From Cetorhinus maximus (lineage: Eukaryota), in contig NW_027596304.1 of the NCBI RefSeq assembly GCF_964194155.1, positions 62,001-126,000 of the forward strand: a stretch of 64,000 nt of DNA, given 5' to 3'. The translations under genes and the position numbers were made by a program. The first letter of the stretch is position 1, and each line of letters starts with the position of its first letter. Positions 3,016 to 49,819 of the stretch are shown here, one piece after another. Under the pieces are notes generated by a model. That model made no database searches. It was not told the DNA's origin and was given only the letters and a program-made list of their open reading frames with translations.

Positions 3016-3914
3016 TCATTCAATGGATTTAAGAATTGGAGTAAAGGGATATTTCAGCACATTCTTCAACTGCTCTCTGAACTTAGTCTGGGTCACGGCG
3101 TAAATGCCAGTGTTTGTGCAGCAGCTCAGGAGCTGCAACATGAAGCCCAATTCCATCACAATATAATCTAGGTCAACTTGCACATTCCCCAAGAATGATA
3201 TCCGGCTCCATATAGAATACAATATTAACAATGACCACAACAGGATGAAATTAGCCGAGATAACGAACAGTAAAATGATGGATTTCCTCCGACTCTCCAT
3301 CTCTGGGTCTCTGGGACTCTCCCCACTGCTTTGAGCCCGGAGTCTCCTGCGGGCTCTGCTGCTGACTAAAATGTGTCTAACGGTGAGAAGATTGAGCAGT
3401 AGAATCAAGGAAAATGGGACACAGGGGGTAAGGATGTGATGGAGAAATTCTATAGTCATCCAGACCGTAGAGAGCTGAACAGCAAATGATATATCGCAAA
3501 ACCAGGGCGCGTTCCTCAGAAAATACCCACCTCTGAGCATTAAGTACCAGATGATGTTCTTTAAACAGCTCAGCACAGTCACTGTTCCCAGAACAACAGC
3601 CGCTGTTTTCTCGGTACAATATTTAATTTTCAGATTGTGGAGACAAATAGCCACAAATCGATCAAAGGTGAAAGTGACAGTGAACCAGACAGAACAGTCA
3701 GTGGCGGCATATAGGAAGACAGCATGGATATTACACACAGGGATAGAATACAGGAAACGAAACTGTTCCGCAAAAACGATTGGAATGTGTCTCAATATCA
3801 GGTCGAGGATAACGACCAGTAGATCTGCCGCTGACATGGCGACCAGGTAGCGAGAGACACATTTTGATAGACCGCAGTTTCCCCGAGACAGGATGACAAT
3901 TGACAATAAATTAA
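3016..3914 (-). CDS. GPR139-like class A GPCR gene 1, exon 2 (end of TM1 to C-terminus)
   Basis: Open frame with hydrophobic helices and motifs YLVAMSAAD (TM2), PVC, SVWFTVTFTFDRFVAIC (TM3/DRF), PWFC (ECL2) and CCTNTGIY (TM7). Acceptor tctttcttccacacAG|TTAAT has its AG at 3916-3915, and phase 1 matches exon 1. Confidence 0.92.
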
Positions 3915-4559
3915 CTGTGTGGAAGAAAGATAAGCATGGAAATTAGCTTGGGAGAGAAGTGACCAGTTTGATTAAGCAAGTCTTGAAATGATGAATTGTG
4001 CTCTTCTTTCCTGAGCTGTGTAAATATGATTGTGCCGGAACGAACAAAGGAAAACCCAGTGATGATCTGGAAGGCTGGAGAGATTAAAGCAATAAAAGGT
4101 TTTTACAGCAATATTTGAATTCAAATCTATTGCAAATTCTGATATCCTTTCCCTGCATGGCTTAATATCATTTGACCCCTTACATTCAACCAGATCTAAG
4201 CAAACTTCTCGACCTTCCTACGATACAAGCTGAAATTGATGTGTCACAATGCTGAACGCTAAACTATGAGTTTTGGGTTGGACAGGTGTTTTTCTTCCAG
4301 CTGTGTAATCCTCCTTCCGCTGTCCTCCTCCTTAATCCGCCCAGGTGCTGGTAACGCACAGGCTGGTTTGCCTGGGTTACATACTGGGTTCTCCGTGGGC
4401 CAACAGTTTTGGGAGTGGATCAGAAACCCCGGGTTTCGGATTCCGAGGGAGGGCTGTTCCTGACAGGTCCACAACGCCTCCATGATCAAGGCTCATCGAC
4501 CTGAAACATCACATTTGCTTCCACGCTGCAGTTTCTCCCTGACATATGCAGCATTTAAA

Positions 4560-4770
4560 CAACAACAACAAAACCAACTAACATAATTAAAGCACCTTTA
4601 GTTTTACCAAACATTTCTAGGCGTTTGACAGGAGCAATATCGGACCAAATATTACAACGAGCTGAAGGAGAAGACATTGGCCCCATTAAACCAGGGCTGG
4701 AACACAGAGTTACATTTAACAAAAACGTTTTAAAAGGAAGAAAGAGAGGCGGGGATGGGAGAATATTGGA
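4560..4770 (-). mobile_element. LINE (L2-type) 3' end fragment in gene 1 intron
   Basis: (aac)n tail followed by aaagcacctttag...aggcgtttgacaggagc, resembling fish L2 3' termini as recalled. Confidence 0.45.
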
Positions 4771-4784
4771 GAGGATACAATCCA

Positions 4785-5150
4785 GTATAATGTAATCAAT
4801 ACAAACTCAATTGTCCAAATCAGAAGCAGTGCAAGAACAGAGAGACCTGGACATGTTTTTGCACAAACCTCTGCCGGGGGCAGGGCAGGATAAGAACGCT
4901 CTGCATACAGCTTATGATATGATTCACCCCCACAATGTGAATAGCGGCAGAGGGAACACAATGCACGGTTTTATAATAAATCTACGTAAAGCACTATTTT
5001 GATCCCGCTCTGTATGTTGTTTCCAACATCGGGCGCCACACTTTCAGAAAGATGTAAAGGTTTGGGAGGGAGTACAGGTGCTATTTACCAGAGTGGATCC
5101 AGTGATGTAGGATACATGGACAGACAAGAGAAGCTGCAGTTGTTCTTGTC
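4785..5150 (+). mobile_element. CR1-like LINE fragment in gene 1 intron
   Basis: Degenerate RT C-terminal coding remnant (QEQRDLDMFLHK-like) similar to other CR1 copies in the window. Confidence 0.5.
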
Positions 5151-5675
5151 CCAACTGCACCCCACCTCTTACCACAACTCCAGCTTGACATGGATGCTGG
5201 GCGCAAGCAGGGATGAGACAGCTCCGGGGCAGTGGGTGCCCTGGAGATAGGGACATGGAAAGTGGAAAGGGAGTGGGCCTTGCGTTATGGTCTGCTGGAG
5301 GCTGTTGGCAAAATTCAGTCTAGGGAAGAAACTGAGGAGACTAAATTGTGGCACAGAACTGCTCATCTGTGGGCCCGAATTGGGGATGTTGGCTGGCAGT
5401 TTGCGTGTGACTCAATTTCAATTCTCCCCGCCGGGTGCGAAGCCTGACAACCCCCTTGACAATGCAAGAAGGGAGGGCCAACTGAGCCCTCAAGTTCAGC
5501 CATAACCCGCAACGTTAGAAATGAGCAGATAAGAAGTCTGGGGTCCGTGGATCAGGAATAGAGTTATTGATCAGAACTTCACACAATGACACTTGTCTTA
5601 CCAGAATTTAGACGACATGCACTGTAATGAAGTTAAACATGCTTCACAAGTTAATGTCAGAATGTAAAGACTTAC

Positions 5676-5940
5676 CAGGGACACCGAGAATAGCGAGGAT
5701 GGGATAGTAAACTCCTTGAATAACCAAAAGCGCACATAAAATGCGCCATTTTAATGTTATCCAATGATCTTCTGCAGAAAGTAAGTTTAGCGCCGTGGTG
5801 AAGCTCCTGCTGATTGTTGTAACATTACAATCTATTCTTCTCAGGTCCTGATCCATTGTTGTAACATTCCAATCTATTATTCTCAGGTCCTGATCCATTG
5901 TTGTAACATTCCAATCTATTATTCTCAGGTCCTGATCCAT
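5676..5940 (-). CDS. GPR139-like GPCR gene 1, exon 1 (N-terminus and start of TM1)
   Basis: ATG at 5940 in ACAATGG context, 88 codons + 1 nt ending YYPILAILGVP, then donor G|GTAAG at 5675. Splices in frame to 3914 to give GVP-VNLLSIVILSRG, 387 aa in total. Confidence 0.88.
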
Positions 5941-6012
5941 TGTTGTAACATTCCAATCTATTCTTCTCAGGTTCTGATCTATTGTTGTAATATTCCAATC
6001 TATTGTTCTCAG
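5813..6012 (-). repeat. 42-bp tandem repeat (~4.8 copies) spanning the 5'UTR and N-terminal coding region of gene 1
   Basis: Unit attgttgtaacattccaatctatt(a/c)ttctcaggtcctgatcc starts at 5813, 5855, 5897, 5939 and 5981. It encodes MDQDLRIIDWNVTT. Confidence 0.95.
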
Positions 6013-6120
6013 AGTCTGTACTCTCCTCTCCTTTGCCTCCCCATTAAGCCGATGATCCCGGCTTGTTGCGGATGGAATGCTCCTGATAATACTGTGGGAT
6101 AACGCATTGAAACGCGCAGC

Positions 6121-6203
6121 TTATAAATAGAAGAGGGCAAACTGTCAGAGGCACAGTTAAATTCCATGGAGAGTGACATTAATTACAGCCACCGAACAAA
6201 CAG
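6121..6203 (-). promoter_or_regulatory. Putative core promoter of gene 1 (TATA-like box, homeodomain-type site, O/E-like site)
   Basis: Minus strand reads CTGTTTGTTC (6203-6194), TAATTAATG (6185-6177), TCTCCATGGAA (6172-6162) and TATTTATAA (6129-6121), about 180 bp upstream of the ATG. Confidence 0.4.
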
Positions 6204-7594
6204 TTTCAGTTAACCCATTTCATTCCAGCACTCTTGTGTCCGAACAGAGATGTACGAGTTTTGCTGAGTGAAGGGTGATTGTTTTAGCGAAGGCACTGAT
6301 CATAATCTTTCATTCTTCCTTGTATACGTGAGTGACGCCCGATGATTGGAAGCTTGTAAATGTTCCACCCTGCTTTGAATATAGAACAGAAACTCTAACT
6401 GCAGCCCGGCAGTCGAATGACGCTGGTGGCTCAATTTCTACAGGCAATGATGAAGGGCAAAAATCGAGGCCGTTCTGTAAACAATGTATAGGTTCATAGA
6501 ATATAAGGGAAATGGGAATATTAATAGAAAAGCAAACGTGTCTGATGAATTGGATTGGGGCCGCTTCCAGAATAGCTGAAAGTGATGATGATAGTCCGTT
6601 TATTGTCATATAGATAGTATTGCCATCGGCGTGCGGTCAGACGTCATTAGTTAGAAATGTAATGGAAACAGAAACCCATGGGGTAAAGAGGCAGCTGTAG
6701 AGTGGTTGTGATATGTGATACTGTGATACTGTGCACCCTTCTGCAATCTTCAATCCCTTACAGTACTGTTCAATATTCAGAATTCTTCAATCTGTTTCAA
6801 GATGCTGCCATGCAGTAACAGAACTTCTCTGAGACTGGAAAAGAGCTGTGCCTGTAGTGGCGGTGAGCCGCCAGCAGAGGGTAGGGTTGTATCACTTTAA
6901 TCTGAAGACGATGAAACGGGTTTGACAAGAGAATTTCACCCTTTTCAAATTCATTCCTTGATCAAACGATCCAAAGAGACAAAAACTCTGACAATAGATG
7001 CGAGTCCAGGCTGAGGCAGTCATTATCGAATTGGGATGGAAGCCTTTTATAGCCCATGTGAAGTGACATTGATGTCTGAATACACGTTGATGAAATAATG
7101 ATACAGACTAACATGATTGCGGAGGCTTCTATTGGGCATGATCAGTCTGACTGGAGGGAATTAATTTGATTTGAATTATTGTGCTCGGAAGTGGAGGTCC
7201 AGCTTGTTATTGGGTGTTGTGTCCACAGGAATCAATTTGAGTTTTGCTGTGGAGGGAGACTTTGTGCTGGGGGTGATGGGAGTCACTTTCTGATTGGTCT
7301 GGGGGGCAGTTACATGGTACTTTGTGTGAGATGCTGATATATGGGCTTTTCAAACAGAGGCTCCAGGTAGAATAATCCCACCCTACACTTTCCCGAAGCC
7401 CAATATCTAATCTAGGTGGTAGCCGGAGTCTTTTCCCAGTTCACAGTATATCTCTGACAGCGGCTGAGGATGTCTCACCCTGTGTCAGTCAGAGACTTCT
7501 GGTTAACCTCTCTCACTGGACCTCCTGTGGAGATCTGGGTCGGGCAGAGCATGAGGAGTGAGCGTGTTCTGTTTGTGAAATCATTCAGTTCAGC

Positions 7595-8497
7595 TCAGCA
7601 TTGAATGAGTTTTAGAATTGGAGTAAAGGGGAATTTCAGCCCAGCCTTCAGCTGCTCTTTGAACTTAGTCTGGGTGACTGCATCCAAACTAGCCTTTGTG
7701 CAGCAGGTCAGGAGCTACAGCATGAAGCCTATTTCCCGAATATAAAGTTGTGGTCTTACATAAATGTAGCCCAAAACTACCATTCGCCACCATAGGGAAA
7801 ACATCGTGAAGACAGCACATAACAGGATGCAATTTCCTGAGATAATAAACAGTAAAATTAAGGATTTCCTTCGACTCTCCATCTCTGGGTCTCTGGGACT
7901 CTCCCCACTGCTCTGAGCCCGGAGTCTCCTGCGGCCTCTGCTCCGCACTAAACTATACCTGACCGTTAAAGCATTGAGCACTAAAACCAGGAAAAATTGG
8001 ACTCCCGGCGTTACAATGTAATGAAGAATCTCGATTGCTGCCCATGTCCGTGAATTCTGAACATCCAATGACACAAAACAAAACCAGGGGAAATTCATGC
8101 CCCAATACCGAGCCGTATACATAAAATACCAGAACACATTCTTCAAACAGCCCAACAAACTGACTGTTCCCAGAACCACAGATGCAGTATTTATGTCGCA
8201 ATATTTTGCTCTTAACTTACTGCAACAAATAGCCACAAATCGATCGAATGTAAAAGTGACAGTGAACCAGACAGAACAGTCTGTGACTGTGTAAAGCAGA
8301 ACAGCATGGATATTACACACGGGAATAAAAAAACAGGAACATAAACTCGATAGTATAACGAATTGGAAGATGCTTCAGAATCAGATCAATGATAACGACC
8401 AATTTATCTGCTCCTCGCATGGCCACAAGATAGTAAGTGGCACATTTCGAGAGACCGCACTTTCCCCGAGAAATAACCACTATCGTCAGTACATTAA
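7595..8497 (-). pseudogene. GPR139-like GPCR pseudogene 2 (exon 2)
   Basis: Colinear with gene 1 exon 2 (DCSVWFTVTFTFDRFVAICC, PWFC, RDPEMESRRKS). Lesions: acceptor reads cacAT instead of cacAG (8499-8498), +1 frameshift in a T7 run (8327-8333), and in-frame TAG at 7717-7715. The natural stop is at 7597-7595. Confidence 0.88.
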
Positions 8498-8889
8498 ATG
8501 TGAGGAAGGGAGACAAACAGATAAATTAATCTTCAGGCTGGGACGAGTTACCAGTTTAACAGAATATGGTTGCATTTTTTAAATGCCTCGTTGTACCCAG
8601 TTATATCTGCAAATGCTTCTGCCCATGACACCGCTATCATCTGCAGAAAGCTTTTCTTTTTAAATAATGTAGACCACTCAATGTTTATTAAAATCCGGAA
8701 TGGGTTAATCCATCAGCACAAGTCGCACCTCAAAATGAGTTAAGAACGTGGCAAAACGACATTAATATACTGGAACTCAAACAGCGGAGTCCAATGCGAC
8801 TGGATGAAATAAGACAGCCCTCAATCAAACGATCAGATTAAAGCACTGCATTTCTGCAAAATGTAATGTTGGTTCCAATAAAACATAAT

Positions 8890-9410
8890 ATTAAGACCGG
8901 GGGAGGAGGCTCTGCAAACACCCACATCCTCAATGATCTGGGCGCACAGCAGGTCAGCACAAAAGACTCGGCTGCAAGATTTGAAACCATATTCGCCAGA
9001 AGGCCCGAGTGGATGATCCATCCCGGCCTCCACCTCAATTCCTCTGAATCGCAGATGCCAGACTGAAGACACTCGATTCACTTCGATAATATCAAGGTAC
9101 TTGTGAAGTCTCTGAGCACAGCAAAGGCCCAGGGGCTGACTGCATCACAGCCTGAACATTGAGGACTTGTGCCCCAGAATTAGCCGCAGCTCCAGCCAAG
9201 CTGCTGTAGGACAACTACGTGGCAGGCACCTTCTGGGAGAAGAGGGTAATTGGCCTGATATGTCCTGTACACACGAACACACACAAAGTATGGAAAAGCG
9301 GGATCAATCTCAGTCATCAACAATGTGATGGAAGGTGTGACAGGCTTGAAAGCAGGCGCCACTTATACATGTCTAACCTAGGATCTGAGACTCACTTGAT
9401 TTAGTCCATA
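8890..9410 (+). mobile_element. LINE (L2/CR1 supergroup) internal ORF2 fragment
   Basis: Translates as GGGSANTHILNDLGAQQVSTKD...FETIF. Reverse-complement homolog of sequence around 13100-13600. Confidence 0.7.
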
Positions 9411-9414
9411 TCTC

Positions 9415-10455
9415 ATGAACCAGAAGACTTGGAGACTGCTGCAGCAGATCGTGTATGATCTGATTGTAACTCAACTCCACAGCCCTGCCTATCCTTGAAA
9501 ATCTCTTACCTCCATTGCTTATCAAAGACCGATCCACCTCTGCCTTAAAAGAATTCAAAGACTCTTCACCAACCACCTTTTGAGAAACAGAGTTCCAAAG
9601 GCTCATGACCCTCTGAGAGAAAGAAAAACTCTCCTCATCTCTGTCCTCAATGGGTGACGCCTTATTATTAAACAGTGGGCCCCAGTTCTAATTTCTCTCA
9701 CAGCAGGAAGGATCCTCTGCAGATTGACCCTGCCATGATCCCTCAGAATCTTTTATCTTTCATTCACTCTTCTGAACTCCAGTGGATACAAGATTAGCCT
9801 GCCCAATCTTTCCTCATCAGAAAACCCGCCCATTCAAGATATTAGTCTCTTAAACCTTCTCTGAATGGCTTCCAACGCATTACATCCTTCCTTAAATAAC
9901 GAGACCAATACTGTACACAACACCCCACTTGTTTTCTCACCAGTGCTCTGTGCAACTCAAATATAACCTCCCTACTATTGCATTCAAAACCCCTCGCAAT
10001 AAATGATAAACTTCTATTAAGTTTCCTATTTACCTGCGGTATCTACATACTAGCCTTTAGTGATTCCTGCACTAGAACACCGCGACACCTCTGCATCTCA
10101 GAGCTCTGCAATCCCTCACCATTTGGATGATAAGATTCTTGTTTAAATACATTTTCCTGAAAACATTGACAATTTCACATTTTCCCATGTTATTCTCCTT
10201 TAGCCACGCATTTGACGACTCACTTAACCTATCTACATGCCTTGTAGCCTCCTTATGTCCTCTTCACAACTTACTATTCTCCCAATCTTTGTGTCATCAG
10301 CAAATTTACTAAGTACCTTCATTTAATCGTTCATATAAATTTTAAAAAATTAGCGCCCTACACTGATCGCTTTGGCAGACCACTCATTAGATCTGGCCAA
10401 TTAGAAGAAGACCCATTTCTGCCAATCCACTGTTTCCTTTTAGATTATTGTTTAC
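9415..10455 (-). mobile_element. CR1-like LINE 3' fragment
   Basis: Minus strand encodes SLWNSVSQKVVGEESLNSFKAEVDR, typical of the CR1 ORF2 C-terminus, and matches the 3' ends of other CR1 copies here. Confidence 0.8.
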
Positions 10456-10459
10456 ATTG

Positions 10460-13400
10460 GTTAATTGGATGTTGGCGTCGCTTTCTTGGTCAAAATTTTT
10501 TGCCCAACTCTAATTGCACTTGAGGAGGTGGTGCTGAGCAGCCTTCTCGAACCGCCGGAGTCCCTGAGGTACAGAGGCACCCAAAGTGCTGTTACGGAGC
10601 AAGTTCCAGGATTTTGACTCAGCGACAGGGAAGGAACAGCGATAAGTTTCCAAAACGGGATTGTGAGTGACTTGAGGGGAACTTCCAGGTGGTGGTGTTC
10701 CAATGTGTCTGCTCCCCTTGTCCATCTACATGATAATGGCCGTGGGCTTGGAAGGTGTTGACTAAGGAGGCTCAGTGAATTCCTGCAGTGCACCTTGTAC
10801 ATCGTACACACTGCTGCTACTGTGGGTCGGTGGTAGAGGAAGTTAATGTTTGTGGATGTGGTGCCAATCAAGAGCGCTGCTATGTCCTAGATTTGCTCAA
10901 GCTTCCTGACTGTTGTTGGAGCTCTACTTATGTTGGCAAGTGGAGAGTATTCCATCACACTCCTGAATTGTGCCTTGTAGATGGTGGACAGGCCTTCTGT
11001 AGACAAGAGCTGAGTTACAATCCGCAGAATTCTGAACTATGACATGCTGTTATAGCTACAGCATTTATATGGCTTGTCCAGTTCAGTTTCTGGTCAATGG
11101 TAACCCCCAGGATGTTGATAGTGTTAGACGCCTTTGAATGACAAGAGGCAATGGTTGTATTCGCTCTTCTTGGAGATTGGCATTGCCTGGCACATGCGTT
11201 GCGTGAATGTCACTTGCCAGTTGTCAGTGGTATGATCCGTGGTGATGTTCCTACGGGAAAAGTCTGATCCCAGGGTGGTACCCAGCTTGAGAGATCTTAA
11301 GTTTGATTTTTTGTTTAGATGCGTGGAGAGTGTCGACTGAACAGAGTTACAGGAGACAGCTGATCGGTTTTTAACAATGAATAAAACATTTATTAAACTT
11401 GAAAAGATGATAAGTCCTTCACCATAAGTGTGCCTTTCCAGATATATACAGATTTACAAAGAAAGCAGATGTTAGAACATCTATCTTATACAATAATATT
11501 CACAGTCGTTACACAGTCCATGCAAAGCAATCTGCGACTTGTGGTAATGCATACAACACCCTGAAACCAAGTGTCTGGTTCCATTCCGAACAGATGCTAT
11601 AGATACCTGACATCTCCCCCCAATCGCTTTTCAAATATTGAGCCAACCGGTCTCATTGAGCTCCGTCTTTCACACGAGGCTTCCCAACCTCCACTCTCCA
11701 AGAACACATTTGGAATATTCTCGCAAACCATGCTTTCTCTCAAACGCCTTCCATTAACGGTCCATCTACAGGGCTCCGAGCTCTCCTGGATCGCCACGTG
11801 CATTCAAGCTTCCAGCCATGCATTCGCTCTCCCTGTTTCAGCCATGCCAAAAGAACACCATTGCTTCACACGCCCATAGCAAGGCGTTACAGAACTCGAG
11901 CTGTCTCCTTGGACCTTCTGCATTATTGCAAGCCAAACTTGCTTTAAATCTGCATGCTGAAACATCTCCCTTGAAATGTGAAACCTTTCTCTGCTTCTCA
12001 CTCCCAAAACTACCTAACAGGACCTTGTCCAGATTCCTGTTTGCTTCTTTTGATTAGTAGATCTTCATCAGACCACTCATCTTCTCTTTCTGAAGTTCCC
12101 TCCTGTACAGCTTCTCCTGCCAGCTGGTTTCAAATTTAGTTTCGGACTTGCTACCAGCCCCTCTCCAAGGCTCCTTCTCCTGGCAAGTCCTTTCAGCCTT
12201 AGAACACCCACACCAAATGAACTCAAACTGCTTTCGGTTTAGACCTGTGTTTATGTGTTTGTGTGCGCGTGCGTGTACATATGTGTGTGTGTGTCTGTGT
12301 GTATGTGTGTGTTTGTGGCCACCCTATCTGGAACCCGGTTGTAAGGAAACAGCAAAGTTTTTGTACTTAACCTTCCCTAAACTACTACCCCACTTGATAA
12401 CACAGCTCTGCACCTCAAGGATCATAAACATCTTTGAAAATGCAGGCACACAAACCGAGCTTACACTTACAGTCGCCTCTGGAAAATGTAACGACATGCC
12501 AGGTTTCACCATTTTAACCCACACATCGAGAAAAAAAAAACTTGCTTGAAAATTAAAGCAAAAAATATTGCCTAAACCAACAAATGTAAATATAACTTAC
12601 TTAAACTCCCTCGTTCCTAACATCTGCTCAAGCTTGGATATTGTCCAGGTGTTGCTGCATTTGGACATGGGCTGCTTCAGTGCCTGAGGAGTCGCGAATG
12701 GTGCTGAACATTGTGCAATCATCAGCGAACATCGCAACTTATGACCTTATGATGGAGGGAAGGTCATTGATGAGCAGCTGAAGATGCTAGGCTGAGGACT
12801 CTACCCTGAACATCTCCTGCAATGATGCCCTGGGACTGAGATGTTGGACCTCTAACAGTCACAACCATCTTCCTTTGTGCTATTTATGACTCCAACCAGC
12901 GTAGCGAATTCCCCACTGATTCCCATTGATTCCAGATATGTTAGGGCCCCTTGATGTCACACTCAGTCAAACGCTGCCTTGATGTCAAGGACATTCACTC
13001 TCACCTCACATTTTGAATTACGTTATTGTGTCCATGTTTGAACCAAGAGTGTAATGACGTCAGAAGCAGAGCGGACCTGGCAGGACCCCAAATGGGCGTC
13101 AGTGAGCAGGTTAATGCTAAGTAGGTGCCGCATGATAGCGCTGTTGATAGCCCCTTCCGTTACTTTAATGAATATCGAGAATAGGCTGATGGGGAAGTAA
13201 TTGGCCAGGATGGATTTATCCTGTTTTTTGTGCACAGAAAATGCCTGGGCATATTTCCACATTGGCAGTAAGTTGCGAGTGTTTTACATCTACTGGAACA
13301 GTTCGGCGAGTGCCGCAGAATATTCTGGAGCTCATGTCTTCAGTGTAATTGTCAGAATATCGTCACGGTGCATAATCTTTTCATTATGTATGCCTTCAGC

Positions 13401-14640
13401 CAGTTCTTCATAACACGTGGAGTAAATGGATTTGGCTGAAAACTGGCATCTCTGACGCTGTGGAACCCCGGAGGAGGTCGAGCTAGGTCATTCACTTGGC
13501 ACTTCTGGCTGAAGATTGTTGCTTATGTTTCAGCTTTATGTTTTGCACTGATGTGCTGGGCTCCTCCTTCATTGTGGATGGGGATATTACTGGAGCCCCC
13601 ACATCCACCGCCATTCACGAATGCTTGTGGCATGACTGCAGAGATTAGATCTAATTCTTTGGTTGTGAGATCTTGCTGCTTATGCAAGTTTGACATGCAA
13701 GTAGTCCTGCGTTATAGCATCAACAGGCTGACACCTTTTTTCAGATATGCCTGCCGCTGCTCCTGGCATGTCCTTCTGCACACTTCATTGTACCATGGTT
13801 GACCCCCTGGCTTGATGGTAATGGTAGAATTGGGTAGATGCCGGGCCGTGAGGTTACAGATTGTGTTCCAGGACAAATCCGCTGCTGCTCATGACCCTCA
13901 GTGCCTCATGGACGCCCAGCCTCAAGTTGCTGGATCTGTTCGAAACCTATCCCATTCAGCACGTTGGTAGTGCCACACAGCACGATGGAGGGTATCCTCA
14001 ATATGAAGGTGGGACTTGGTCACCAAAATGACTGTGCGGTGGTGACTCCTACCAATACTGTCATGGACAGATGCATCTGCGGCAGTCAGATTGGTGAGGA
14101 TGAGGTGGAGCATGTTTTCTTCCTCCTGTTGGTTCCCTCACCACCTAACGCAGACACCGCTATGTCCTTTAGTATTCGGCCAGCTCAGTCAGTAGAGGTA
14201 CTAACGAGTCACTCTTTGTGATGGACATTGAAGTCCCCCACCCAGAGTAAATTCTGCGCCCTTTTACTCTCATCAGCTGAGGGACGGCGCTCCGTGGTAA
14301 TCAGCAGGATGTTTCCTTGCCCGTGTTTCATCTGATGCCATGAGATTTCATGGAGCCCGGACTTCATGTGGTGCTCACCCACCGCAACTCCCTCCTAACT
14401 ATTTACTCTGTGGCCCTGCCTCTGCGGTGGGACTGTCATGCCAGTGGAACAGGGGATACTCAGGGATGTTGATGGTGGTGTCTGGGACATTTTCTCTCTG
14501 TATGATTCCGGTAGGATAAATATGTCAGGCTGTTGCTTGACCTGCCTGTGAGACAGCTCCTCCCCGGCCTCCATGTTAGTGAAGAGGATTTTGCAGGGTC
14601 GACAGAATTACATTTCTTATTGTCATTTCCAGTGCCTTGG
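10460..14640 (-). mobile_element. LINE (L2/CR1 supergroup), ~2.8 kb, split by an LTR insertion at 11228-12622
   Basis: Degenerate RT motifs on the minus strand (QG-VL..IFSC-INDLPSIIRS..MFADDCTMF at ~12700-12820) and a 3' tail at 10460-10560. Sequence is contiguous across the insertion when compared with the copy at 30510-30550. Confidence 0.82.
11228..12622 (-). mobile_element. Solo LTR (~1395 bp), probably Gypsy-type
   Basis: TG...CA termini (minus strand TGTTAGGAAC...GGATCATACCA), imperfect 4-bp target duplication TCAG/TCTG (11224-11227 and 12623-12626), AATAAA on the minus strand near 11390, precise interruption of a LINE, internal (GT)n at ~12250-12315. Confidence 0.72.
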
Positions 14641-14759
14641 TCGATGCCTGGTGATTTCTCCGGTCTCATTCCTTTTGTAATTTTTCGTGTTTTGAAGCAA
14701 CTTAGTGCCATCGCTGTGGATCTGGAGTTCGATAATTTCCCACAGGTAAGAACCTCGGA

Positions 14760-14961
14760 TTCCTTTGACCAAAAGGGGATTAGTTAACCAGATGGATTTG
14801 TACCACAATCGACGATGGCTTCAACAGTGATCTGTAGACTTTTATTTCCAGATTTATAATAAATTCAAATTCGAGTGGAATCCGAATCCGTGTCTCCAGA
14901 TCATTACCATGGGTCTCTGGGTGACTCGTCTGGCGACGACGCCTCTTTGCCAACACCTCCC
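14760..14961 (-). mobile_element. tRNA-derived SINE fragment (SacSINE1-like)
   Basis: Minus strand cccagagacccatggtaatgatctggagacacggattcggattcc...gaatttgaatt..aaatctggaa resembles the recalled shark SINE head. Confidence 0.5.
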
Positions 14962-15169
14962 ACATGGTATGCTGAAATTTACAGAGTCCTGTGGTGGCTT
15001 TCTGCATGTAATATTTTTACACGATGACATTGATACAGTTCAGCATGAGCCTGTTTTCAGAACAGTTCTAAACTCGAGGGTCAATAGACTAATCCAGGTG
15101 GGATCTCACCAAAGCCCTTTCCCAGTCGCTTAGGGCCAGGCATCTGGAAATTGTTGACATTGATATGAC

Positions 15170-16630
15170 GCCTCCTCGTAACCATGAGCGCCCAATCCCT
15201 CTACACATCATTTCCCCACCAGGATGGTCTGAGGGATCTCCGCTTCGTCCATGAACAGAGGCCCAAAAAATCAACATCCACCACCTCTCTCCTCCCCCTG
15301 GCTGAACGTGTTCCATCACTGAAAAAATTCTCCTTTAACTTATCCCTCGCCCACCAAACAAAAGGTATGGCTGCGGGCAACAACACGGTCACTAGTTATG
15401 CCTGTTTATTCATGAGTAATGTGGAACAGTCCTTGTTGCTGTCCTACTCACTCCACACCCTACTGAGAAAGCTTTTTTAGGTATATCGATGACTGAATTG
15501 GTGGTGCTGCATGCTCTTGTCTGGACCGGGAAAGATGTATCAATTCTGCTTCAAATTTCGGCCCCTCTATCAGCTTCATATGGTATATCTCCGACAGTTC
15601 CCTTACCATCCTTGACGTCTCTGCTTCCAATTCTGTTGATGGATTGCCCAGTAATGTTCATTACAAGTTCACCAGGCCATACAGCTACCTCGACTACATC
15701 TCCTCACACCCCGCTTCCTGTAAGGACTCCATCTCATTCTCTCAGTTTGCATGTGTTCGGATGACGCCATTTTCCAAATCGCTTCTGACATGTCTTCCAT
15801 CTTCCTTAACCGAGGTTCTCCCCTCCCCCACAATGCTTGCCAAGGTCCTCAACTGTGTCTGACCAATCTCCCCCGCCTAGGCCCTCAACGGTTTCCCTCC
15901 CACCCTGAAGAATGATTGGGCCCCCCTTGACCTAATTTTACACCCCAACAACCTCTGCATTCAACCCATCATCCACTACCATTTCCGTCTATTCCAACAT
16001 GATGCCACCACCAAACACATCTTCCTCTCAACCCCTCCATCAGAATTCCGTCGTAACCGCTCCCTCCACGCCTCCATGACCCCCAACACCTCATCCCCTT
16101 CCCACGGCACCTTCACATGCAATCACAGAAGGTGCAACACCTGCCCATTTACCTCATCCTTCCTCACCGTCCTAGGGCTCAAACAATCCTTTCAGGTGAA
16201 CCAGTGCTTCACTTGCACTTCCTTCAATTTTGTCCTCAGCATTCGCTGCTCCAAGTTCGGACTCCTCTATGATTGGGAGACTAAAGGAGAATTGGGTGAC
16301 CTCTTTTTGGAGCACATTGGGTCTGTCTGCAAGCATGACCCAGACCTCCTTGCCGCTTCCCATTTCAACACTCCATCCTGATCTCAGCCCACATGTCCGT
16401 CTTCGGCCTGCTGCAATGTTCCAGTGAAGCCCAATGCAAACTGGAGGAACAGCGCCTCATCTTCCGACTGGGAACTTTACAGCCTTCCGGACATTAGATT
16501 GAGTTCAACAACTTCAGACCATGAGCTCTCTCCTCTATCCTCACCACATTTTAAACCCTTTCTCTCGATTCTTTTTTTTACCCACTTAGTTTTATTTATT
16601 CTTAATTTGATTCATTTATTATCCCCATTT
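15170..16630 (+). mobile_element. Penelope-like retroelement fragment (RT and GIY-YIG endonuclease), degenerate
   Basis: QSLYTSFPHQDGLR...FSFN...KGMAAG...SYACLFM (Penelope RT) and GTFTCNHRRCNTCPF...FTCTS...IRCSKFGLLY.WETK...LGD.F.EH (Zn linker and GIY-YIG), with frameshifts. Confidence 0.88.
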
Positions 16631-16769
16631 TAAATCCCTCTATCTGCCCTAATTCCTTTCCAAGTCTAAGTGAATGATTCAACGTTCGAATGTATAAATC
16701 TCTGTTCCTTAGTGAGGCATTCTACCCTTTGATAGGATAATGAAAGTTAAAGAGGGCAGTCACGCCCCT

Positions 16770-17121
16770 GAGAGAATGAGAGAGTGAGATACAAAGAGGA
16801 AGAGACAAAAGCAAGAGAGAGAAAGTGAGACAAGAAAGGCAGGAGAGAGAGAAAGGAGGGATGGTGTGGGAGAGTGAGTGAGAGAGAGAGAAGGACCGAG
16901 AGATATGGAGAGTGAGAGACAGAGTGAGGCAATGAGAGAGAAAGAGAAATAGAGAATGGGAGGGAGAGGAGAGAGAGTGGAGTGAGAGAGAGAAGAGTGA
17001 GAGACAAGAAGAGGAAGGCAGAGATTGAAACAATGAGAGAGAGACAGAGAGAGGAATGGAGGTACTGAGAGAGAGAGACAAGAAGAGTGAGACAAGAGGA
17101 GAGAGAGGGAGAGAGAGAGAC
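16770..17121. repeat. (GA)-rich degenerate microsatellite
   Basis: Nearly pure purine gagagaga/gagacaaga tract. Confidence 0.9.
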
Positions 17122-17500
17122 TCGATTAATTGCAATTCAATGATTTAATAACCACAGCATTGGGATCAGCAGTTAGGAGACAATTTTAGAAGTTGTGTTT
17201 GGACTGATGTTTCCTATTTTTGAGTGAACAGAGTCAATGCTGGGCGAACGAAACTTGTTAGCTCATGATGTGTTCAGAATTATCCAGTGAAATCCCAGCG
17301 CTAAATATAGACTGTACAGCAGGGAATTAAATCACTTTCGAAAACCTGTTTGTTCAAGTTTAAAACAAATAAGCTGCAACTTCAAATTCCCGGAGGTGTT
17401 CATACAGAATATTGATTAAAGGCTTTGCGAATGTATCGCCCCACAGTTTAATACAGCGAGATTGTCACGAGACGAAGGGACAAATCACTTCAGTGAGAAT

Positions 17501-17567
17501 ATGATTGAACAGTTTAACAGTTTTAGAAAAATATATTACCTGATCTTGGCAATAATTGGTGTACCCG
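17501..17567 (+). CDS. GPR139-like GPCR gene 3, exon 1 (absent from the ORF track)
   Basis: ATG at 17501 gives MIEQFNSFRKIYYLILAIIGVP + 1 nt, then donor G|GTAAGT at 17568. Same YY..LA..GVP ending and phase-1 intron as gene 1. Confidence 0.88.
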
Positions 17568-18279
17568 GTAAGTGAATATAAACATTTAATGTCTGTGAAG
17601 ATGTACGTGAGCTCATTTGTGATTTTATTCTGCTACTCATAATATTACATATATGGTGGATCTATATGGGCAGTCGATCAGTCGTAGCATTTTCTACAGT
17701 CAAATACCCTGAATTATCTCTACCGATTCATTATATTGCACCAACTGAAGATCAAGTTCTGCTTATAACTTGCATAGAAACGGTAATATCAAGTTATATT
17801 CTCCAGTGGAACATAATGTTCTATTATCTGTAAGTGTACAGTTGTACTGAGTGTGGTTAACTAGCTGAAATGGAACACCCAGCCACAGTGCCTATGGGTG
17901 TCTGGGAATATGTGATAGTGCAAAACTACAGAGGCTGTGGGTCACTAACCCGTGGAATGAGGAGCTGAGGAAGGGATACCCAGTGACCATGTATTACCGG
18001 GAGTAATTGTTAGGGTAGACATATGCTGAATTTGGTTCAATGACCGGCATGAAACAAACTGCTTTGGTTGTGAATGCTTGTTTAGGATGACGGGTCTCTC
18101 CATTTCATATAGCTGTCGCTTTTGTCTTTACGGATGTCACCTTTAAACGATGGGTGGATTATTGTTGTGTCTTGTGTAAGTGTAAGTGTATACAGTGAAA
18201 ATTATTGATGTGGATCGGTCGCCGATTCAATTGCTCCACGAGAAAGAGATATTTACTGTCAGTTTAACAGGAGAGCAAA

Positions 18280-19145
18280 ACAGACTAATGAATAAGGTCA
18301 TAAAATGTGGCGTCAAGGGAGAAGTGGCCGAATGGATTGCTCGCTGTATTGAGGACAGAAAGCAGACAGGAGGAATAAAGGGTCTTTATTCAGAGTGGAA
18401 GAAGGTGGGAAGTGGTGTTCCAGAAGGATCAGTACTGTGATCAGTGCTCTTCAAAATGCATTAATGAGTTAAATTTTGTAATCAAAACACAATGTCGATT
18501 ATTACAGATGAGACCTGCTTGAGACAGGGTGTGGTCAATACTGAGGAGGATTGCAAAAGTAGATCATTTATGATAAATCTGCATCAGACCTTAGCCAGAG
18601 CACATATTGAATACTGGATAAAGTTCAGTTCAGGTATTATAGAGCCAAGGGTACGGAGACACTGCCGAGGGTGGAGAGACTGTATACATCGATCATGTCA
18701 AACATACGTGGGTATAAATACCAGGAACGGATTGACAGGCTGTGACTTTATCTCTTGAAAATGGAAGGCTGAGGGGTGAGCTAATTAGAAATGTAAAATG
18801 AAGAAAGGATTTGATAGGGTGGACACAGAAAGAATATTTGTTCCTGTGAGGAGGGGCATAAATGGAGGCCATCGTTTTGAGAGGATTACCAATAAAGCCG
18901 ATAGGGAGTTCAGAGGGAACTGTTTCATCCAAAGAGCGGTGAGAATGTGCAACTCGCTACCACGCAGAGTGTGTTGTGAATCCTTTAGATTCATTTAAGG
19001 GAATATGAACAAGGAAGTGAGGGAAAAAGGAATAGAGTGTTACGTTGTCAGATTCAACTGATAAAATCTGGGCCGAGGCTCCAGTGGATCATCAACTTTG
19101 AAATGAGCTGCTTAGGTCGAATGGCCTGTTTCTGTTCTTTATATC
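18280..19145 (+). mobile_element. CR1-like LINE 3' fragment in gene 3 intron
   Basis: CGVKGEVAEWI...SGVPEGSVL, KGFDRVD...F.QRAVRMCNSLP, and 3' end ggtcgaatggcctgtttctg. Confidence 0.8.
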
Positions 19146-19352
19146 CGACCAATCATGTTTAATGCTTCCCCGTCTGAACTCGGGATTTCACAGGGTGGGG
19201 ATGGGTTGGGTAGGGATTTGGAGTTTTAATTTCAAAGTTTAGCCTCTGACAGGGTCCAAAATGATCTATTTTGTTGGTTGAATATTGGCCTTATTGAGTG
19301 TGAATGTTTGATCAGTTAATTTCCAGTCGCTTTACCCTTCTCCCTCTTACAG

Positions 19353-20263
19353 TTAATTCACTGGCGACTGTGATATTAACCCGGGGAAAGTGTGGCCTCT
19401 CCAACTGCACCACCCGCTTTCTGGTGGCCATGGCAACGGCGGACCTACTGGTCATTATCACTGAGGTCATCATGTGGAGGGTAACTTATTATTATTTTGG
19501 ACAGAGTTTCCTGCTCATCACCCCAGTGTATAGTGTTCTCGGTGTCCTGACTCGTGCAGCCACAGACTTTTCAGTCTGGTTCACCGTCACTTTCTCCTTT
19601 GACCGATTTGTGGCCATTTGTTGTCAGAAGCTGAAAACAAAATATTGCACCGAGAAAACTGCGGCTGTGGTTCTAGCATCAACCGGCATTCTGCACTGTT
19701 TAAAAAACATCCCGCACCACTTTACACAGGAACCTGGAGAGATAATCGACAATGTTCCGTGGTTCTGTTATCCAAAGCCAAGCTATTTTACTAACCCCGG
19801 GTGGGTGGGATTTGACTTGTTTGACACGGTTTTAACCCCATTGCTCCCATTCACTTTAATTCTGCTGCTCAACGCTCTGACAGTCAGACAAATTTTAGTG
19901 GCCAGTCGAGTCCGTAAGGGGCTGAGGGGTCAGAGCAAGGGTGAGAATCGCAGTGACCCAGAGATGGAGAACAGGAGGAAGTCTGTGATTTTACTCTTCA
20001 CCATCTCGGGCAGCTTCGGACTGCTGTGGTCGGTGTATGTTATAGATTGCTTATTTTATACCATTACGGAAACAGGTCCCAGTGATTACACAGATTCTGA
20101 ATATATATGTAAACAATTCCGAATGATGCTGCGGAGTTTAAGTTGCTGCACAAACACATTTATTTATGGGGTGACTCAGTCCAAGTTCAGAAAGCAGCTG
20201 AAGGATGCTTTGAAATATCCGCTAACATCATATATTCATTTGTTGAAGAATCAAAACAACTGA
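19353..20263 (+). CDS. GPR139-like GPCR gene 3, exon 2
   Basis: Acceptor ccttctccctcttacAG|TTAAT at 19351-19352. Open frame with FLVAMATAD, SVWFTVTFSFDRFVAICC, PWFC, DPEMENRRKS and CCTNTFIY. Spliced product is 325 aa. Confidence 0.88.
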
Positions 20264-20619
20264 AAATAGCCCAGAGGCGGCGTTCACAGTTTCCCGGCAA
20301 TAAATGGTCTATTTAACCACAAACGTCCAATCGGCACGGGCCACTAAGTCGCTGAGCCCTTGTGGGGAGTGAAGGCTCAGGAGCGGATGGAAAAGGGGCA
20401 GTAGATCGGTCAAATCATCCCCTTCTGGTGCAGGCACATGTACAGAAACCAAACTGTATTGTACTGAGTCGTCGCCGTACTTCCATAATAGCAGCTGTCC
20501 CAGATGTTGATTATGCATTGGGGAAAGCAATCCGGGAGCCCCGGCCAGCCACTAACAGGGACTTCATTCATGGGAACAGGAGGAGCTCATTCAGTCCGCG
20601 AGCCTGCGACTTTTAAAAA

Positions 20620-22921
20620 ATAACAACAAATTCAACAACCACAACATTGAAAAAAACAACAAATTCACCAACAACCTCAAGATTGAAAAACACCAACATA
20701 TTCAACAACAACCTCAGCTTTGAAAAACACCAACAACTACAACAAACTCAACATTGAATTACACCAACAAATTCAACAACTAAATCAACATTGAAAACCG
20801 CCAGCAAATTCAACAACAACCTCAACATTGAAAAATACCAACAAATTCAATCAAACTCAGCATTTAAAAACAACAACAAATTCAACAACAACCTCAACCT
20901 TGAAATACACCAACAAATTCAACAATATCTTCAACATTGAAAAACACCAACAAATTCAGCAACAACCTCAACTTTTGAAACAAAACACAACTGCATACTC
21001 AACAACAACCGCAACATTGAAAATCACCAAACAAATTAAACAAAATCAACATTATAAAACATCAACATGTTCAATAGCAACATCAAGATTGGAAAACACC
21101 AACAAATTTACCAACAACTTTAACTTTGAAACACACCAACAAAGTCAAAAAGATTGAAAACCACCAACAATTTCAACAGGAGCCTCAACATTGCAAAACT
21201 CCAAATAATTAATTAACAAACATAACATTGCAAAACACCAACAAATTCAATAGGAAGATTAGCATTGAAAAACACAAACAAATTCAACAACTATAACGTT
21301 GAGCATCACCAAGAAATTCCAGAACAATTTCCACATTGTAATAGAGCACACAATCAGCAACAACCTCAACTTTGTAAAAACTCTCACAAAGTCATCAACA
21401 ACTTCAACATTGAAAATCAGCAACAATCTGAACATTGAAACTCATCAACAACATAAACAATGTCAACATTGAATAACCCCAACAAATTCAAATACAACCT
21501 CAGCTTAGATCAAAAGCAACAAATTGAACCATAACTTCAACATTAATAAGCACCAAAAAATTCAATAACGTTAACATTGAAAACATCGACTAATTCAAGA
21601 ACAAGCTCAACATTGAAAAAGAGCAACAAATTCAACAACAGACTCAACATTGAGAACAACAACGACAAATTCAACAACGTCAACATTGAACATCACCAAC
21701 ATATTCAACAACAACCTGAATATTGTAGAACACTGACAAATTTTATAACTACTTCAACATTGAAAATCAGTAACATATTCAATAGCAGGAACAACATTGA
21801 AAAAAAAAAAATCAGCAAACATAACAACAAATTCACGTTTGAAAAACAACAGCAAAGTTAAAATGATTGTGAATCACCATCAAATTCATAAACAGAGTAA
21901 GAATTGAGAACCATCAACAAATTCAGCAATTGTTTGTTAAACGTTGAGGTTGTGTTTGAAAATGTTTGCACTTTTAGTTGATGACATTTTTGTTGAACTT
22001 GGTGTTTTTCCGCGCTGTTGTTGAATTTTTACATGTTTTTCAATGTTAACGTGAATTTGTAGGTGTTTTTCAATGACGAGGTTGCTCTAGAACGTGTTAA
22101 TGTTTTTCATTGTTAAGCTTGCTGAATTTGTTGATGTTTTTCATTGATGAAGTTGTTGTTGAATTTTTTGGTATTTAACAATGCAGAGGTTATTCATCGG
22201 TTTGTTCTTCATTTTCTATGGCGACGTGGTTTCTGAATTTACTGGTGTATTTCAATCTTGTTGAATTAGCTGGTGCATTTCAATGTTGAAGTTGTTGGTG
22301 AATTTGTTGATGTTCTACAATGTTGAGCTTCCTGCAGAGTATGTTGGTGATAATCAGTACGGAGTTTCTTTATGAATTTGCTGGGGTTTTTGAATGTTGT
22401 AGTTGTTGCTGAATTTGTTGGCGTTTCCAATGTTGAGTTGTTATTGAATTGATTGCTGTTTTCCAATGTTGGGTTTGTTATTCAAGTTGTTGGTGTTTCT
22501 CAATTTCGAGGTTGTTGTTCAATTTGTTGGTGTTTCTCATTTTTGAGGTTGTGGTTGAATTTCAATTTTGAATTTCAATTTCAAATGTTTTTCAATGTTT
22601 ACGAGCTTGTTGAATTTCTTGGTGTTTTCAATGTTGCTGCTGTTGAATTTCTGGGTGTTTTTCGATGTTTATGTTGCTGAATTTGTTTTGATATACAATG
22701 TAGAAGTTTTTTGCTGAATGTATACCTATTTGTCAATGTTGAGGTTGTTGTAGATTTGCTGGTGTTTCTTAATGTTGATGTTGTTGTTGAATTTCATTGA
22801 GTTTTTCAATGTTAAACCACTTATTGAATTTGTTGGTGCTTTGCAAGGCTAAACTTATTGTTGAATTTGTTCGTGTTTTTCAATGTTGAGTTTGTTAATT
22901 AATTAGTTGGTGTTTTGCAAT
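20620..22921. repeat. 37-bp AT-rich satellite (TTGAAAAACACCAACAAATTCAACAACAACCTCAACA) in two inverted arms
   Basis: A/C-rich units at 20620-21930 (period 37, e.g. 20683 to 20720) switch abruptly to their reverse complement at 21931-22921. Confidence 0.92.
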
Positions 22922-23500
22922 GAACCGACAAAACAGGCGTGGTTCTTGGGACAGTGACTGTCCTGATATTTTTAAAGAACCTTTTCTGGGATTCCATGCT
23001 CACAGGAATGTATCAAATTGTTAACGAACCCTGGTTATGTTCTGTAATACTAGATTTTTATTACTCTACGGTCTGGGTAACAATCGAGTTTGTCCATTAT
23101 ATTCTTAACCCGTTAGCCCCAGTTATCCTGATTCGGCTGCTCAATTTTCTCACTGTCAGACGCATTTTAGTGAACAGCAGAGCCCGCAGGAGCCTCCGGG
23201 ATCACAGAAGTGGGGAGAGTGCCAGAGAGCCAGAGATGCAGAGTCGATAGAAATCCATCATTTTACTGTTTGTTATCTCGGAAAATTTCCTACTGCAGTG
23301 GGCACGATCATGGTGTGTTCTGTATGAGTCCGAATGTATAATTAGTGCTATGAGTCCATATTGCTGCATCCTTCTGCGCAGGAATTGGGCTCCTGAATTG
23401 CTCCACACATCCTTGCATTTATGCCCCGACTAAATTCCGGCAGCAGTCGAAGGATGTGCTGACATGTCCCTTTGACCCTATTGCATAATTCATTCAAAAA
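22921..23500 (+). pseudogene. GPR139-like GPCR pseudogene 4 (5'-truncated exon 2 fragment)
   Basis: VLGTVTVLIFLKN...EPWLC...TVWVTIEFVHYIL...RARRSLR..SGES.REPEMQSR*KSIILLFVIS. TAG at 23248-23250, degenerate TM6-7, TM1-TM3 missing. Confidence 0.85.
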
Positions 23501-23919: not shown

Positions 23920-24189
23920 GAATAATATTAGAAAAAGGAGAAAAAGGACTTTAATCTCACCCAGTACATTTAAATGGACTGGTTATTTTGATAAGCTTAG
24001 GCTTGAATTAATTCAGCAGTGAACCGGGTAATTAATATATCCTCAATTAACCCTTCAGTTCGACAGAGACAGAACCATCAGGCAGAGTCTCAGACACTGA
24101 ATTAGCGAATAATACTGACGTTTATTGAACAGAAGCAAAATCTAGCACTTATCATTCAGCCAAAGACTCATCAAGCAACTTGGTCAATG
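23920..24189. repeat. ~270-bp dispersed element, copy A (copies B ~29246-29515, C ~34305-34584)
   Basis: aataatattagaaaaaggagaaaaaggactttaatc...gactcatcaagcaacttggtcaatg is near-identical to copy B and more diverged from copy C. Confidence 0.9.
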
Positions 24190-25545
24190 CGGCAGTCCTT
24201 CAGTACTGACCCTCTGGCAGTGCGGCATTCCATCAGTGCTTACCCTCTGACAGTGCAGTGCTCTCTCAGAGCTGACCATCTGACAGTGCATCATTCCCTC
24301 TGTACTGACCTCTGGTAGTGTATTACTCCAACTGTACTGGCCCTCTGACAGTGTTGAAGTCCATCAGCACTGAATATCTCACAGTGGAAAACTCCCTTGT
24401 ACTGACCCTCCGACAATGCGGAACTCGCTCAATATTGACACTCCAAAACTGCAGCACTCCCGCAGCAATGACCCTCCGACAGTGCAGTACACCTTCAGTA
24501 CTGAGCTCCCAACAGTGCTGCTGTCCCGCACTAATGGCCTCCGACACTGCAGCACATCCTCACTAAAGATCATGCAACAGTGTGGTGCATCCTCAGTACT
24601 GACCCTCAGGCGCCCTGGCCGCTCCCTCAATGCTGACCCTCTGACAGTGTGGCACTCCCTCAGAACTGACAAACCGACAGATCGGCATTCCCTCAGAACT
24701 GAACTTTCGACAATCCCTTAGTACTGAACTTCTGACAATATACCACTCCCTCAGTCCGGACCCTCCAACAGCGCAGTTCAGCATAAGTTCTGACCCACTA
24801 ACAGTGCTGCACTCTTTCACTAATGAACCTCCTACATTCAGCACTCCCTCAGAACTGACCCTCCAGCAGATCGACACTCCCTCGGGACTAACCCTCCGAT
24901 AGTGCAGCACTCCCTCAGTCCTCAACCAACCGAAAGTGCAGCACTGCCTCAGAATTGGTCTTCCAACTGTGCGACTCTCCATCACAGCTGAACCACCGAT
25001 TGTGCGACATTCCCTCGCTACTTACCTTTGGACAGTGCGGTACTCCCTCAGAGCTGACCCTCCAACAGCGCGAAATTCCATCAGAACTGACACTCTGACA
25101 GTGCGGCATTCCCTCAGTGCATACCCCCGGACAGTGCTTTACTCCCTCAGGTCTGAAACTCTGCCGGTGTGATATTACCTGAGTGCTGTCCCTCTGACAG
25201 TATGGCACTCACTCAATACTGACCCTTGGACAGTGCGCCACTATCTCAGGACTGACACTCCAAAAGTGCGGCACCCCCTCAGCACTGACCCTCCGACAGT
25301 GCAGTAGTCCCTTATTACTGACCCTCTGACAATATGGCACCAGATCTTTACTGAGCCTCCAGCACATCACTACGACATCAGTACTGAAGCTCCGAAAGTG
25401 CTGCAATCCCTCAGTAATGACCTGCCACACTGCAGCAAATCCTCACTACAGACCATGCATTGTTGTCGCATATCCTCAGTACTGACTCTCTGACAGCTTG
25501 GCGCTCCCTCAGTACTGACCCTCCAACAGTGCGACATCTCACTCC
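24185..25545 (-). repeat. 33-bp minisatellite array (reverse orientation)
   Basis: cagtactgaccctccgacagtgcagcactccct units. Confidence 0.9.
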
Positions 25546-45120: not shown

Positions 45121-45174
<54 letters not shown>

Positions 45175-46566: not shown

Positions 46567-46602
<36 letters not shown>

Positions 46603-49600: not shown

Positions 49601-49815
49601 CTCACAGTCACTTTCTCTCTCACTGATGCAAATTACCCATCTCATTCTCACTAGCTCACAGTCCAATCTGTCTCAGAGCCTCCCTCTCTCATTCACTCAC
49701 CGTCTCCATCTCCCACATTAACAGTCTCACTCTCTCTGTGATATTCACATTCGCTGTCTCACATTCAAAGCCAACTTTTCTCTCACACATTCACAGTCTC
49801 CCTCCCTATCTCTCA
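39830..49815. repeat. ~10-kb CT-rich degenerate simple repeat (cacattcacagtctccctctctct-like)
   Basis: Continuous C/T-rich low-complexity sequence with pure (CT)n at ~45123-45172 and (CACT)n at ~42352-42408. Confidence 0.95.
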
Positions 49816-49819
49816 ATCT

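Follow-up and report, generated by a model that had tools for sequence, protein, structure and literature searches.

The window analysed here is a 64,000-nucleotide stretch of the Cetorhinus maximus genome (contig NW_027596304.1, positions 62,001–126,000 of the forward strand), and all coordinates below are positions within it. Six-frame translation and tblastn place in the window four paralogous loci for G-protein-coupled receptors (GPCRs), A and B on the minus strand followed by C and D on the plus strand, as a first-pass annotation of the same sequence had described. No fifth copy was found by tblastn across the 64 kb. We found that these loci belong to a large elasmobranch family, which we predict is likely an undescribed set of chemical sensors.

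Genes A and C share a common plan, with a short exon 1 ending in transmembrane helix 1 (TM1), a phase-1 GT–AG intron and a long exon 2. In gene A (minus strand) the coding part of exon 1, counted from the first in-frame ATG as the inferred start, occupies 5676–5940, and a 1761-nucleotide intron, whose splicing is deduced from the sequence and from the N-termini of homologues, occupies 3915–5675. Exon 2 (3016–3914) is open from the end of TM1 to the C-terminus, matches Pfam 7tm_1 with E 1.5e-18 and yields a seven-helix model. The predicted product has 387 residues. A candidate TATA-like element lies upstream at 6121–6129 on the same strand. Gene C (plus strand) has an exon 1 at 17501–17567 that encodes a short N-terminus with no N-glycosylation sequon, a 1785-nucleotide intron at 17568–19352, and an open exon 2 at 19353–20263 that matches 7tm_1 with E 2e-21 and belongs to a second subfamily; its predicted product has 325 residues. 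The motifs DRF, CCTNTxIY, RGxCGLS and DPEM are present in both proteins. The two-exon plan with its phase-1 intron and these motifs, all of which the first-pass annotation had listed as shared, are thus borne out. A promoter common to the two genes did not rise above chance (97 of 500 shuffles).

The other two loci are remnants. Pseudogene B (7577–8498, minus strand) consists of exon 2 only, and pseudogene D (22924–23482, plus strand) of the 3′ two-thirds of exon 2. A profile of exon 1 built from 86 relatives found only the first exons of A and C in the window (43 and 25 bits; next best 3.1), indicating that neither B nor D is a whole gene. In B the acceptor at 8498 has changed from AG to AT, a +1 frameshifting insertion lies near 8333, and a premature TAG stands at 7717; D starts in mid exon 2 at 22924, has a TAG at 23248 and has suffered deletions of 1, 13 and 6 nucleotides. 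Both are 72% identical to A at the nucleotide level and 54–58% identical to C, which makes them members of A's subfamily. Gene C is 52% identical to gene A, and a Tyr replaces its TM3 disulfide cysteine. Both disulfide cysteines are kept in all 68 horn-shark and all 26 sharpnose-sevengill paralogues that we aligned, and the TM3 cysteine is kept in 42 of 46 family representatives. Gene C carries further changes unusual for its subfamily; its departures from conserved columns (3 of 56) are not extreme. Without the TM3 cysteine its status as an intact gene is uncertain even though its frame is open, and it may be at an early stage of decay. Of the two intact and two dead copies counted in the first-pass annotation, the dead ones survive as pieces of exon 2, and one of the other two is of uncertain intactness.

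The N-termini differ strongly, as had been noted, but in gene A most of the difference comes from a tandem repeat with a 42-bp unit (5813–6012, minus strand, 4.8 copies). Each unit encodes 14 residues that include an N-glycosylation sequon, and a Met codon opens most units. Read from the first in-frame ATG, the N-terminus of gene A contains three sequons. Its long, sequon-bearing repeat sets it apart from the two sister genes described below, whose N-termini, in the sequences shown, are short and without sequons. Among the top 120 relatives of gene A, 65 have no repeat unit, 35 have one and 20 have two to five, counts that include many gene models lacking the true exon 1. With unit number ranging from 0 to 5 among relatives, both the glycan stalk and the start site appear tunable.

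The family has the features of class A, with the 7tm_1 domain, seven helices and the residues N1.50, D2.50, R3.50, P5.50, W6.48 and Y7.53. 7tm_1 is the only Pfam match of the A and C proteins, and the family-specific domains of OR, V1R, V2R and T2R receptors are not matched; TAARs also carry 7tm_1, and they were left out of our trees. The structure model of gene A contains seven helices with a confidence (predicted local distance difference test) of 85. It predicts a β-hairpin in extracellular loop (ECL) 2, with strands at residues 127–132 and 139–142, and a TM3–ECL2 disulfide as in peptide receptors.

By profile score the nearest characterised receptor is GPR139. Human GPR139 is the only solved structure matched by gene A (two near-identical chains, E 2.8e-7), and the family profile scores it at 82.5 bits, the next protein reaching 60.5. 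It is also the best match in the PDB for the profiles of all three lineages considered here, the elasmobranch family and two sister genes, with 82.5, 64.7 and 97.2 bits. The TM1 sequence of human GPR139 quoted in the first-pass annotation agrees with the PDB chain. GPR139 and GPR142, class A orphans activated by L-Trp and L-Phe, resemble the family in having two-exon genes, as stated in PMC7318219, and no canonical NPxxY. Unlike GPR139, the family has cysteines in TM3 and ECL2 (none in the aligned GPR139 chain), a longer intracellular loop (ICL) 3 and many copies.

Orthology to GPR139 or GPR142 was considered and ruled out. Gene A has about 77 identities to GPR139 over 288 residues (27%), whereas GPR139 itself is 70–96% identical across vertebrates according to PMC7318219. 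Furthermore, the catshark has reciprocal-best orthologues of its own, reported at 81.3% (Gpr139) and 58.7% (Gpr142) identity to mouse in PMC13200729. The agonist pocket of GPR139, as that receptor is described in PMC7318219, is formed by E108, F109, H187, W241, R244 and N271. Gene A keeps H187 and W241 and has Tyr for F109, but its polar trio E108, R244 and N271 is replaced by Leu, Leu and Phe. Gene C keeps only the Trp, one of the six, and has Thr, Tyr and Met for the trio. With these polar ligand residues lost, sensing of Trp or Phe should not be assumed. The name GPR139-like therefore holds at the level of the superclade only, and by sequence the family is a distinct GPR139-related branch. 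This placement comes from profile scores, as the trees were built without GPR139.

The closest relatives of the family are two orphan sister genes. One, found in amphibians and sturgeon (for example XP_069092602), is represented by one sturgeon row and by 20 clusters from amphibians, in which each listed species occurs in a single row. The other, a coelacanth-type gene (XP_005988539), has 145 matches, and three shark species occur once each among the 120 listed; its range covers coelacanth, sharks, ray-finned fishes, amphibians and reptiles. Both appear to be single-copy. Profiles of the three lineages score one another at 105–245 bits, compared with 65–97 bits to GPR139, so the family is closer to the two sister genes than to GPR139. 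In a careful tree of 34 rows the three lineages join at 100/100 support against four invertebrate-type outgroups, and A and C fall into two subfamilies, each at 100/100. The node of the elasmobranch family has 78/68 in this tree, with a core of 15 of its 20 rows at 97/97, and the whole family reaches 88 in the Shimodaira–Hasegawa-like approximate likelihood-ratio test on a quick tree of 87 rows. Monophyly of the whole family is thus not firm.

The amphibian sister gene resembles the family in its DPE(M/V) motif in ICL3. Both sister genes differ from the family in having a basic residue at 6.51, the position of R244 in GPR139 (Lys in 18 of 18 amphibian and Arg in 21 of 21 coelacanth-type sequences). 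At the sodium site, all 18 sequences of the amphibian gene (P0250, P0279–P0295) have Asn where Asp 2.50 is usual. It is an unstudied orphan whose pocket is near-invariant across frogs, salamanders and a caecilian, and its ligand is likely fixed. Models of the coelacanth-type gene from zebra shark and from a frog (P0306, P0404) are labelled as a TMEM183A isoform, an annotation that offers a ready synteny marker for its orthology. PMC6504862 describes, in its account of gar, coelacanth and fishes, with no sharks, an orphan "GPR210" with three subtypes beside GPR139 and GPR142. Our sister genes are possibly these subtypes, matched by taxon range alone, the supplement of that paper having no sequences.

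The elasmobranch family is large. A search with exon 2 of gene A returned 2265 matching 90%-identity clusters at E ≤ 0.001 among 3534 candidates, a total that may include some non-family matches and whose composition is known for the best 120. Of these 120, 119 carry the names of shark species; horn shark accounts for 68 and sharpnose sevengill for 29. By themselves the best matches, at 70–78% identity, would place the window most likely in a shark. Compared over exon 2, the horn-shark sequences fall into 62 groups when the cut-off is 95% identity and 54 when it is 90%, and since they cover A's subfamily only, at least 62 distinct members is a lower bound for this species. A library clustered at 50% identity yields 115 clusters at E ≤ 1e-30, and 21 of the 23 family representatives that we looked up are named sharks or rays. 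Two public sequencing runs that contain part of gene A yield 1761 and 1981 contigs that align to it with a likeness of ≥80%, and up to 70–76 of them show another letter at one base of gene A; these contigs are fragments and give no copy number, and all family counts are lower bounds set by the databases. Two further runs of unrecorded type and tissue, which we did not use as evidence, gave 30 and 8 paralogue contigs, mostly of exon 2 and with no joint across the intron. The named rows that we saw include no chimaera member. Tandem clusters with pseudogenes together with high copy number are characteristic of a birth-and-death repertoire, and the elasmobranch cluster counts and the dead copies support the lineage-specific expansion by birth and death that the first-pass annotation had proposed.

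The proteins themselves are already in the gene catalogues. Shark and ray models named "probable G-protein coupled receptor 139" in RefSeq and UniRef are members of the elasmobranch family, and others are named "neuropeptides capa receptor-like" or "vasopressin V2 receptor-like". These automatic names hide the family under the name of an orthologue, and in many of the models exon 1 is absent or incorrect. The ESM Atlas gave automatic names only and nothing further on the family. In Chiloscyllium punctatum, a coiled-coil, TRIM-like piece is joined to a family member in models P0184, P0422 and P0423; this is probably a fusion made by gene prediction, and it hints that the family lies beside TRIM clusters.

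We compared variability on the two faces of the receptor, with helix numbering mapped from motif anchors and pocket diversity taken over a standard set of 26 positions. Horn-shark paralogues (n = 68) and amphibian single-copy orthologues (n = 18) are matched in overall diversity (0.20 and 0.21). In the paralogues diversity is 0.44 in the ECLs, 0.17 in the ICLs and 0.20 in the pocket, whereas the amphibian orthologues show the reverse, with 0.17, 0.34 and 0.017. Coelacanth-type orthologues (n = 21) have no asymmetry (ECL 0.59, ICL 0.61), and the three shark orthologues of this single-copy gene show no outside–inside contrast either. The contrast in the paralogues is kept when pairs are binned by divergence. 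The excess of extracellular divergence that the first-pass annotation had read from two genes therefore stands when compared with single-copy genes of matched diversity. Members of A's subfamily have a common pocket floor and a variable rim, and from one subfamily to the other the pocket is more diverse (0.75) than the protein is on average (0.54).

We favour, at slightly better than even confidence, the explanation that the family is a sensor repertoire predicted to read many outside ligands, probably peptide-like, through one shared G-protein output. In elasmobranchs, a single-copy ancestor related to GPR139/142 would have begun to duplicate in tandem. The variable ECLs and pocket rim would then serve many different outside ligands, the nearly fixed cytoplasmic face would likely engage one common G-protein pathway, and its uniformity may be maintained in part by segmental gene conversion. 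Peptide-like ligands are made probable by the predicted ECL2 hairpin and TM3–ECL2 disulfide, and the top matches in a fold search with the gene A model are mostly peptide receptors. The function would be sensory or immune, with nose, skin, gut and immune cells as candidate sites. In its most far-reaching form, which we put forward tentatively and regard as rather doubtful, the family would be an unrecognised chemosensory family of sharks and rays, independent of OR, TAAR, V1R and V2R receptors and derived from a GPR139-related orphan that is single-copy in bony vertebrates; it would be larger than the known shark olfactory repertoire, sparsely expressed in sensory cells, and built with a signalling face homogenised by conversion and a diversifying ligand face.

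Several observations weigh against a repertoire for many ligands. The horn-shark sequences were chosen because they resemble gene A. In A's subfamily, pocket positions vary less (0.20) than the remaining outer TM positions (0.25, p = 0.04), which argues for a shared ligand core. In the fold search GPR139 ranks 19th, and scores among class A receptors lie too close for a ligand class to be assigned. The nose needs no further receptor family, as catshark olfactory neurons are described in PMC10116579 as all TRPC2/Go microvillous with robust V2R expression. Two of the four copies are dead, and decay may also have begun in gene C. Finally, the first-pass annotation had proposed the ratio of nonsynonymous to synonymous change (dN/dS) as a check. 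Computed pairwise on the four window copies only, with pseudogenes in the A–B and A–D pairs, dN/dS gave no sign of positive selection. The A–B value of about 0.3 points to purifying selection; it is equal for outer and inner halves (0.28 and 0.32), and even in the ECLs the ratio stays below 1 (A–B 0.58, A–D 0.87). An A–D value of 2.8 in the ICLs was set aside because it comes from 27 codons with a proportion of synonymous differences (pS) of 0.06.

Synonymous differences weigh on the same side, being more frequent on the outer half in A–B (29/58 versus 33/116, p = 0.007) and B–D (12/27 versus 8/50, p = 0.013), among six non-independent pairs drawn from four genes. The asymmetry is not significant in A–D and absent in pairs with C. 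Part of the outside–inside contrast may therefore reflect gene conversion and not selection by ligands, and the modest signal from these four genes suggests that, among members of one subfamily, segments of the cytoplasmic half undergo conversion. When conversion tracts were sought with longest-run tests, one of the six pairs gave a significant result, and none did with four-fold sites alone.

The most probable alternative is largely neutral, and we judge it unlikely. It holds that repeat-driven segmental duplication in big shark genomes multiplied the genes, that a few copies do ordinary signalling while most drift, and that the inside–outside contrast arises from gene conversion together with normal constraint on the G-protein face. 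The synonymous asymmetry and the absence of an outer dN/dS above 1 would fit such a history, as would a cluster with two of four copies dead and a third lacking a key cysteine, embedded in satellites and relics of long interspersed nuclear elements (LINEs). Tandem clusters also grow with genome size in rays, as stated in 10.1101/2025.06.08.657570. Neutral drift does not readily account for dozens of paralogues, 70–90% identical, that in two distant sharks still have open frames, the pair of cysteines and a common pocket floor, or for the coelacanth-type sister gene, which is not expanded and occurs once per shark species among 120 of 145 matches listed.

A second alternative, which we consider quite improbable, is that the family reads diversified endogenous shark peptides of neuroendocrine, reproductive or social function, as invertebrate relatives read neuropeptides. 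GPR139 clusters with FMRFamide, sex-peptide and proctolin receptors in PMC12208981. The predicted peptide-receptor architecture and a pocket floor conserved within a subfamily would agree with this. Receptors for a fixed endogenous ligand, however, do not let their pockets vary, and both sister genes follow this rule. Moreover, we know of no matching expanded peptide family. That the genes are multiplied GPR139/142-type sensors of free Trp and Phe is very unlikely: GPR139 is the best solved relative by sequence, and gene A shares H187 and W241 with it and is aromatic at F109, but E108, R244 and N271 are replaced in A and C, C keeps only the Trp, and the catshark has a true GPR139 and a true GPR142.

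The cluster lies among repeats. A satellite with a 37-bp unit occupies 20616–22922 in two oppositely oriented blocks; it is A/C-rich, its arms reach 163 nucleotides with 70–85% complementarity, and it adjoins the 5′ break of pseudogene D exactly. This foldback-like array may have caused the 5′ loss of pseudogene D. Degenerate 33-bp satellite arrays in both orientations flank the cluster at 1226–2158, 24188–25331, 27531–28622 and 32454–33693. About 20 kb of simple repeats follow at 39900–59760, a CT/CA-rich array and then a G+C-rich satellite of about 460 units of 21 bp; this region is the source of many spurious long open reading frames. Broken retroelement-like relics with reverse-transcriptase-like and endonuclease-like peptide pieces were seen by eye at 15881–16520 and 60633–62840. 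On inspection, the remainder of the window shows satellites and LINE-like relics.

We found no description of the elasmobranch family in the literature searched, which excluded subscription papers. The keyword passages of PMC8455134, PMC11979771, PMC12208981, 10.1101/2025.06.08.657570 and 10.1101/2025.02.19.638963 do not mention it, and its name does not occur in the supplementary files covered for PMC8455134 (12 of 24), PMC12361510 (all but one) and PMC13188829. Cartilaginous fishes are described as GPCR-poor in PMC8455134, and PMC10116579 gives the catshark a small olfactory set of 34 V2Rs, with 4–9 receptors for each of the other families. No V2R cluster is known to exceed 65 genes, according to 10.1101/2025.06.08.657570. 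Against this small published repertoire stand at least 62 distinct horn-shark members in one subfamily. If the family is sensory, current ideas of smell, taste or surface surveillance in sharks would have to change. Because its genes are already annotated, though under a misleading name, existing RNA sequencing of catshark tissues can address the question at once, and since Xenopus and axolotl both carry the single-copy amphibian sister gene, the ancestral ligand can be approached in the laboratory.

A sensory role would also make the family another receptor repertoire born from an orphan GPCR. Formyl-peptide receptors and MRGPRs are repertoires that arose from non-olfactory GPCRs, and they too form clusters that evolve by birth and death and have a variable ligand face. 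The same holds for TAARs and for the lophotrochozoan class A expansions, as the latter are presented in PMC11886862. The elasmobranch family differs from all four in its ancestor and in having a two-exon rather than a single-exon coding region, and it is known here from sequence, while for those repertoires sensory expression has been shown.

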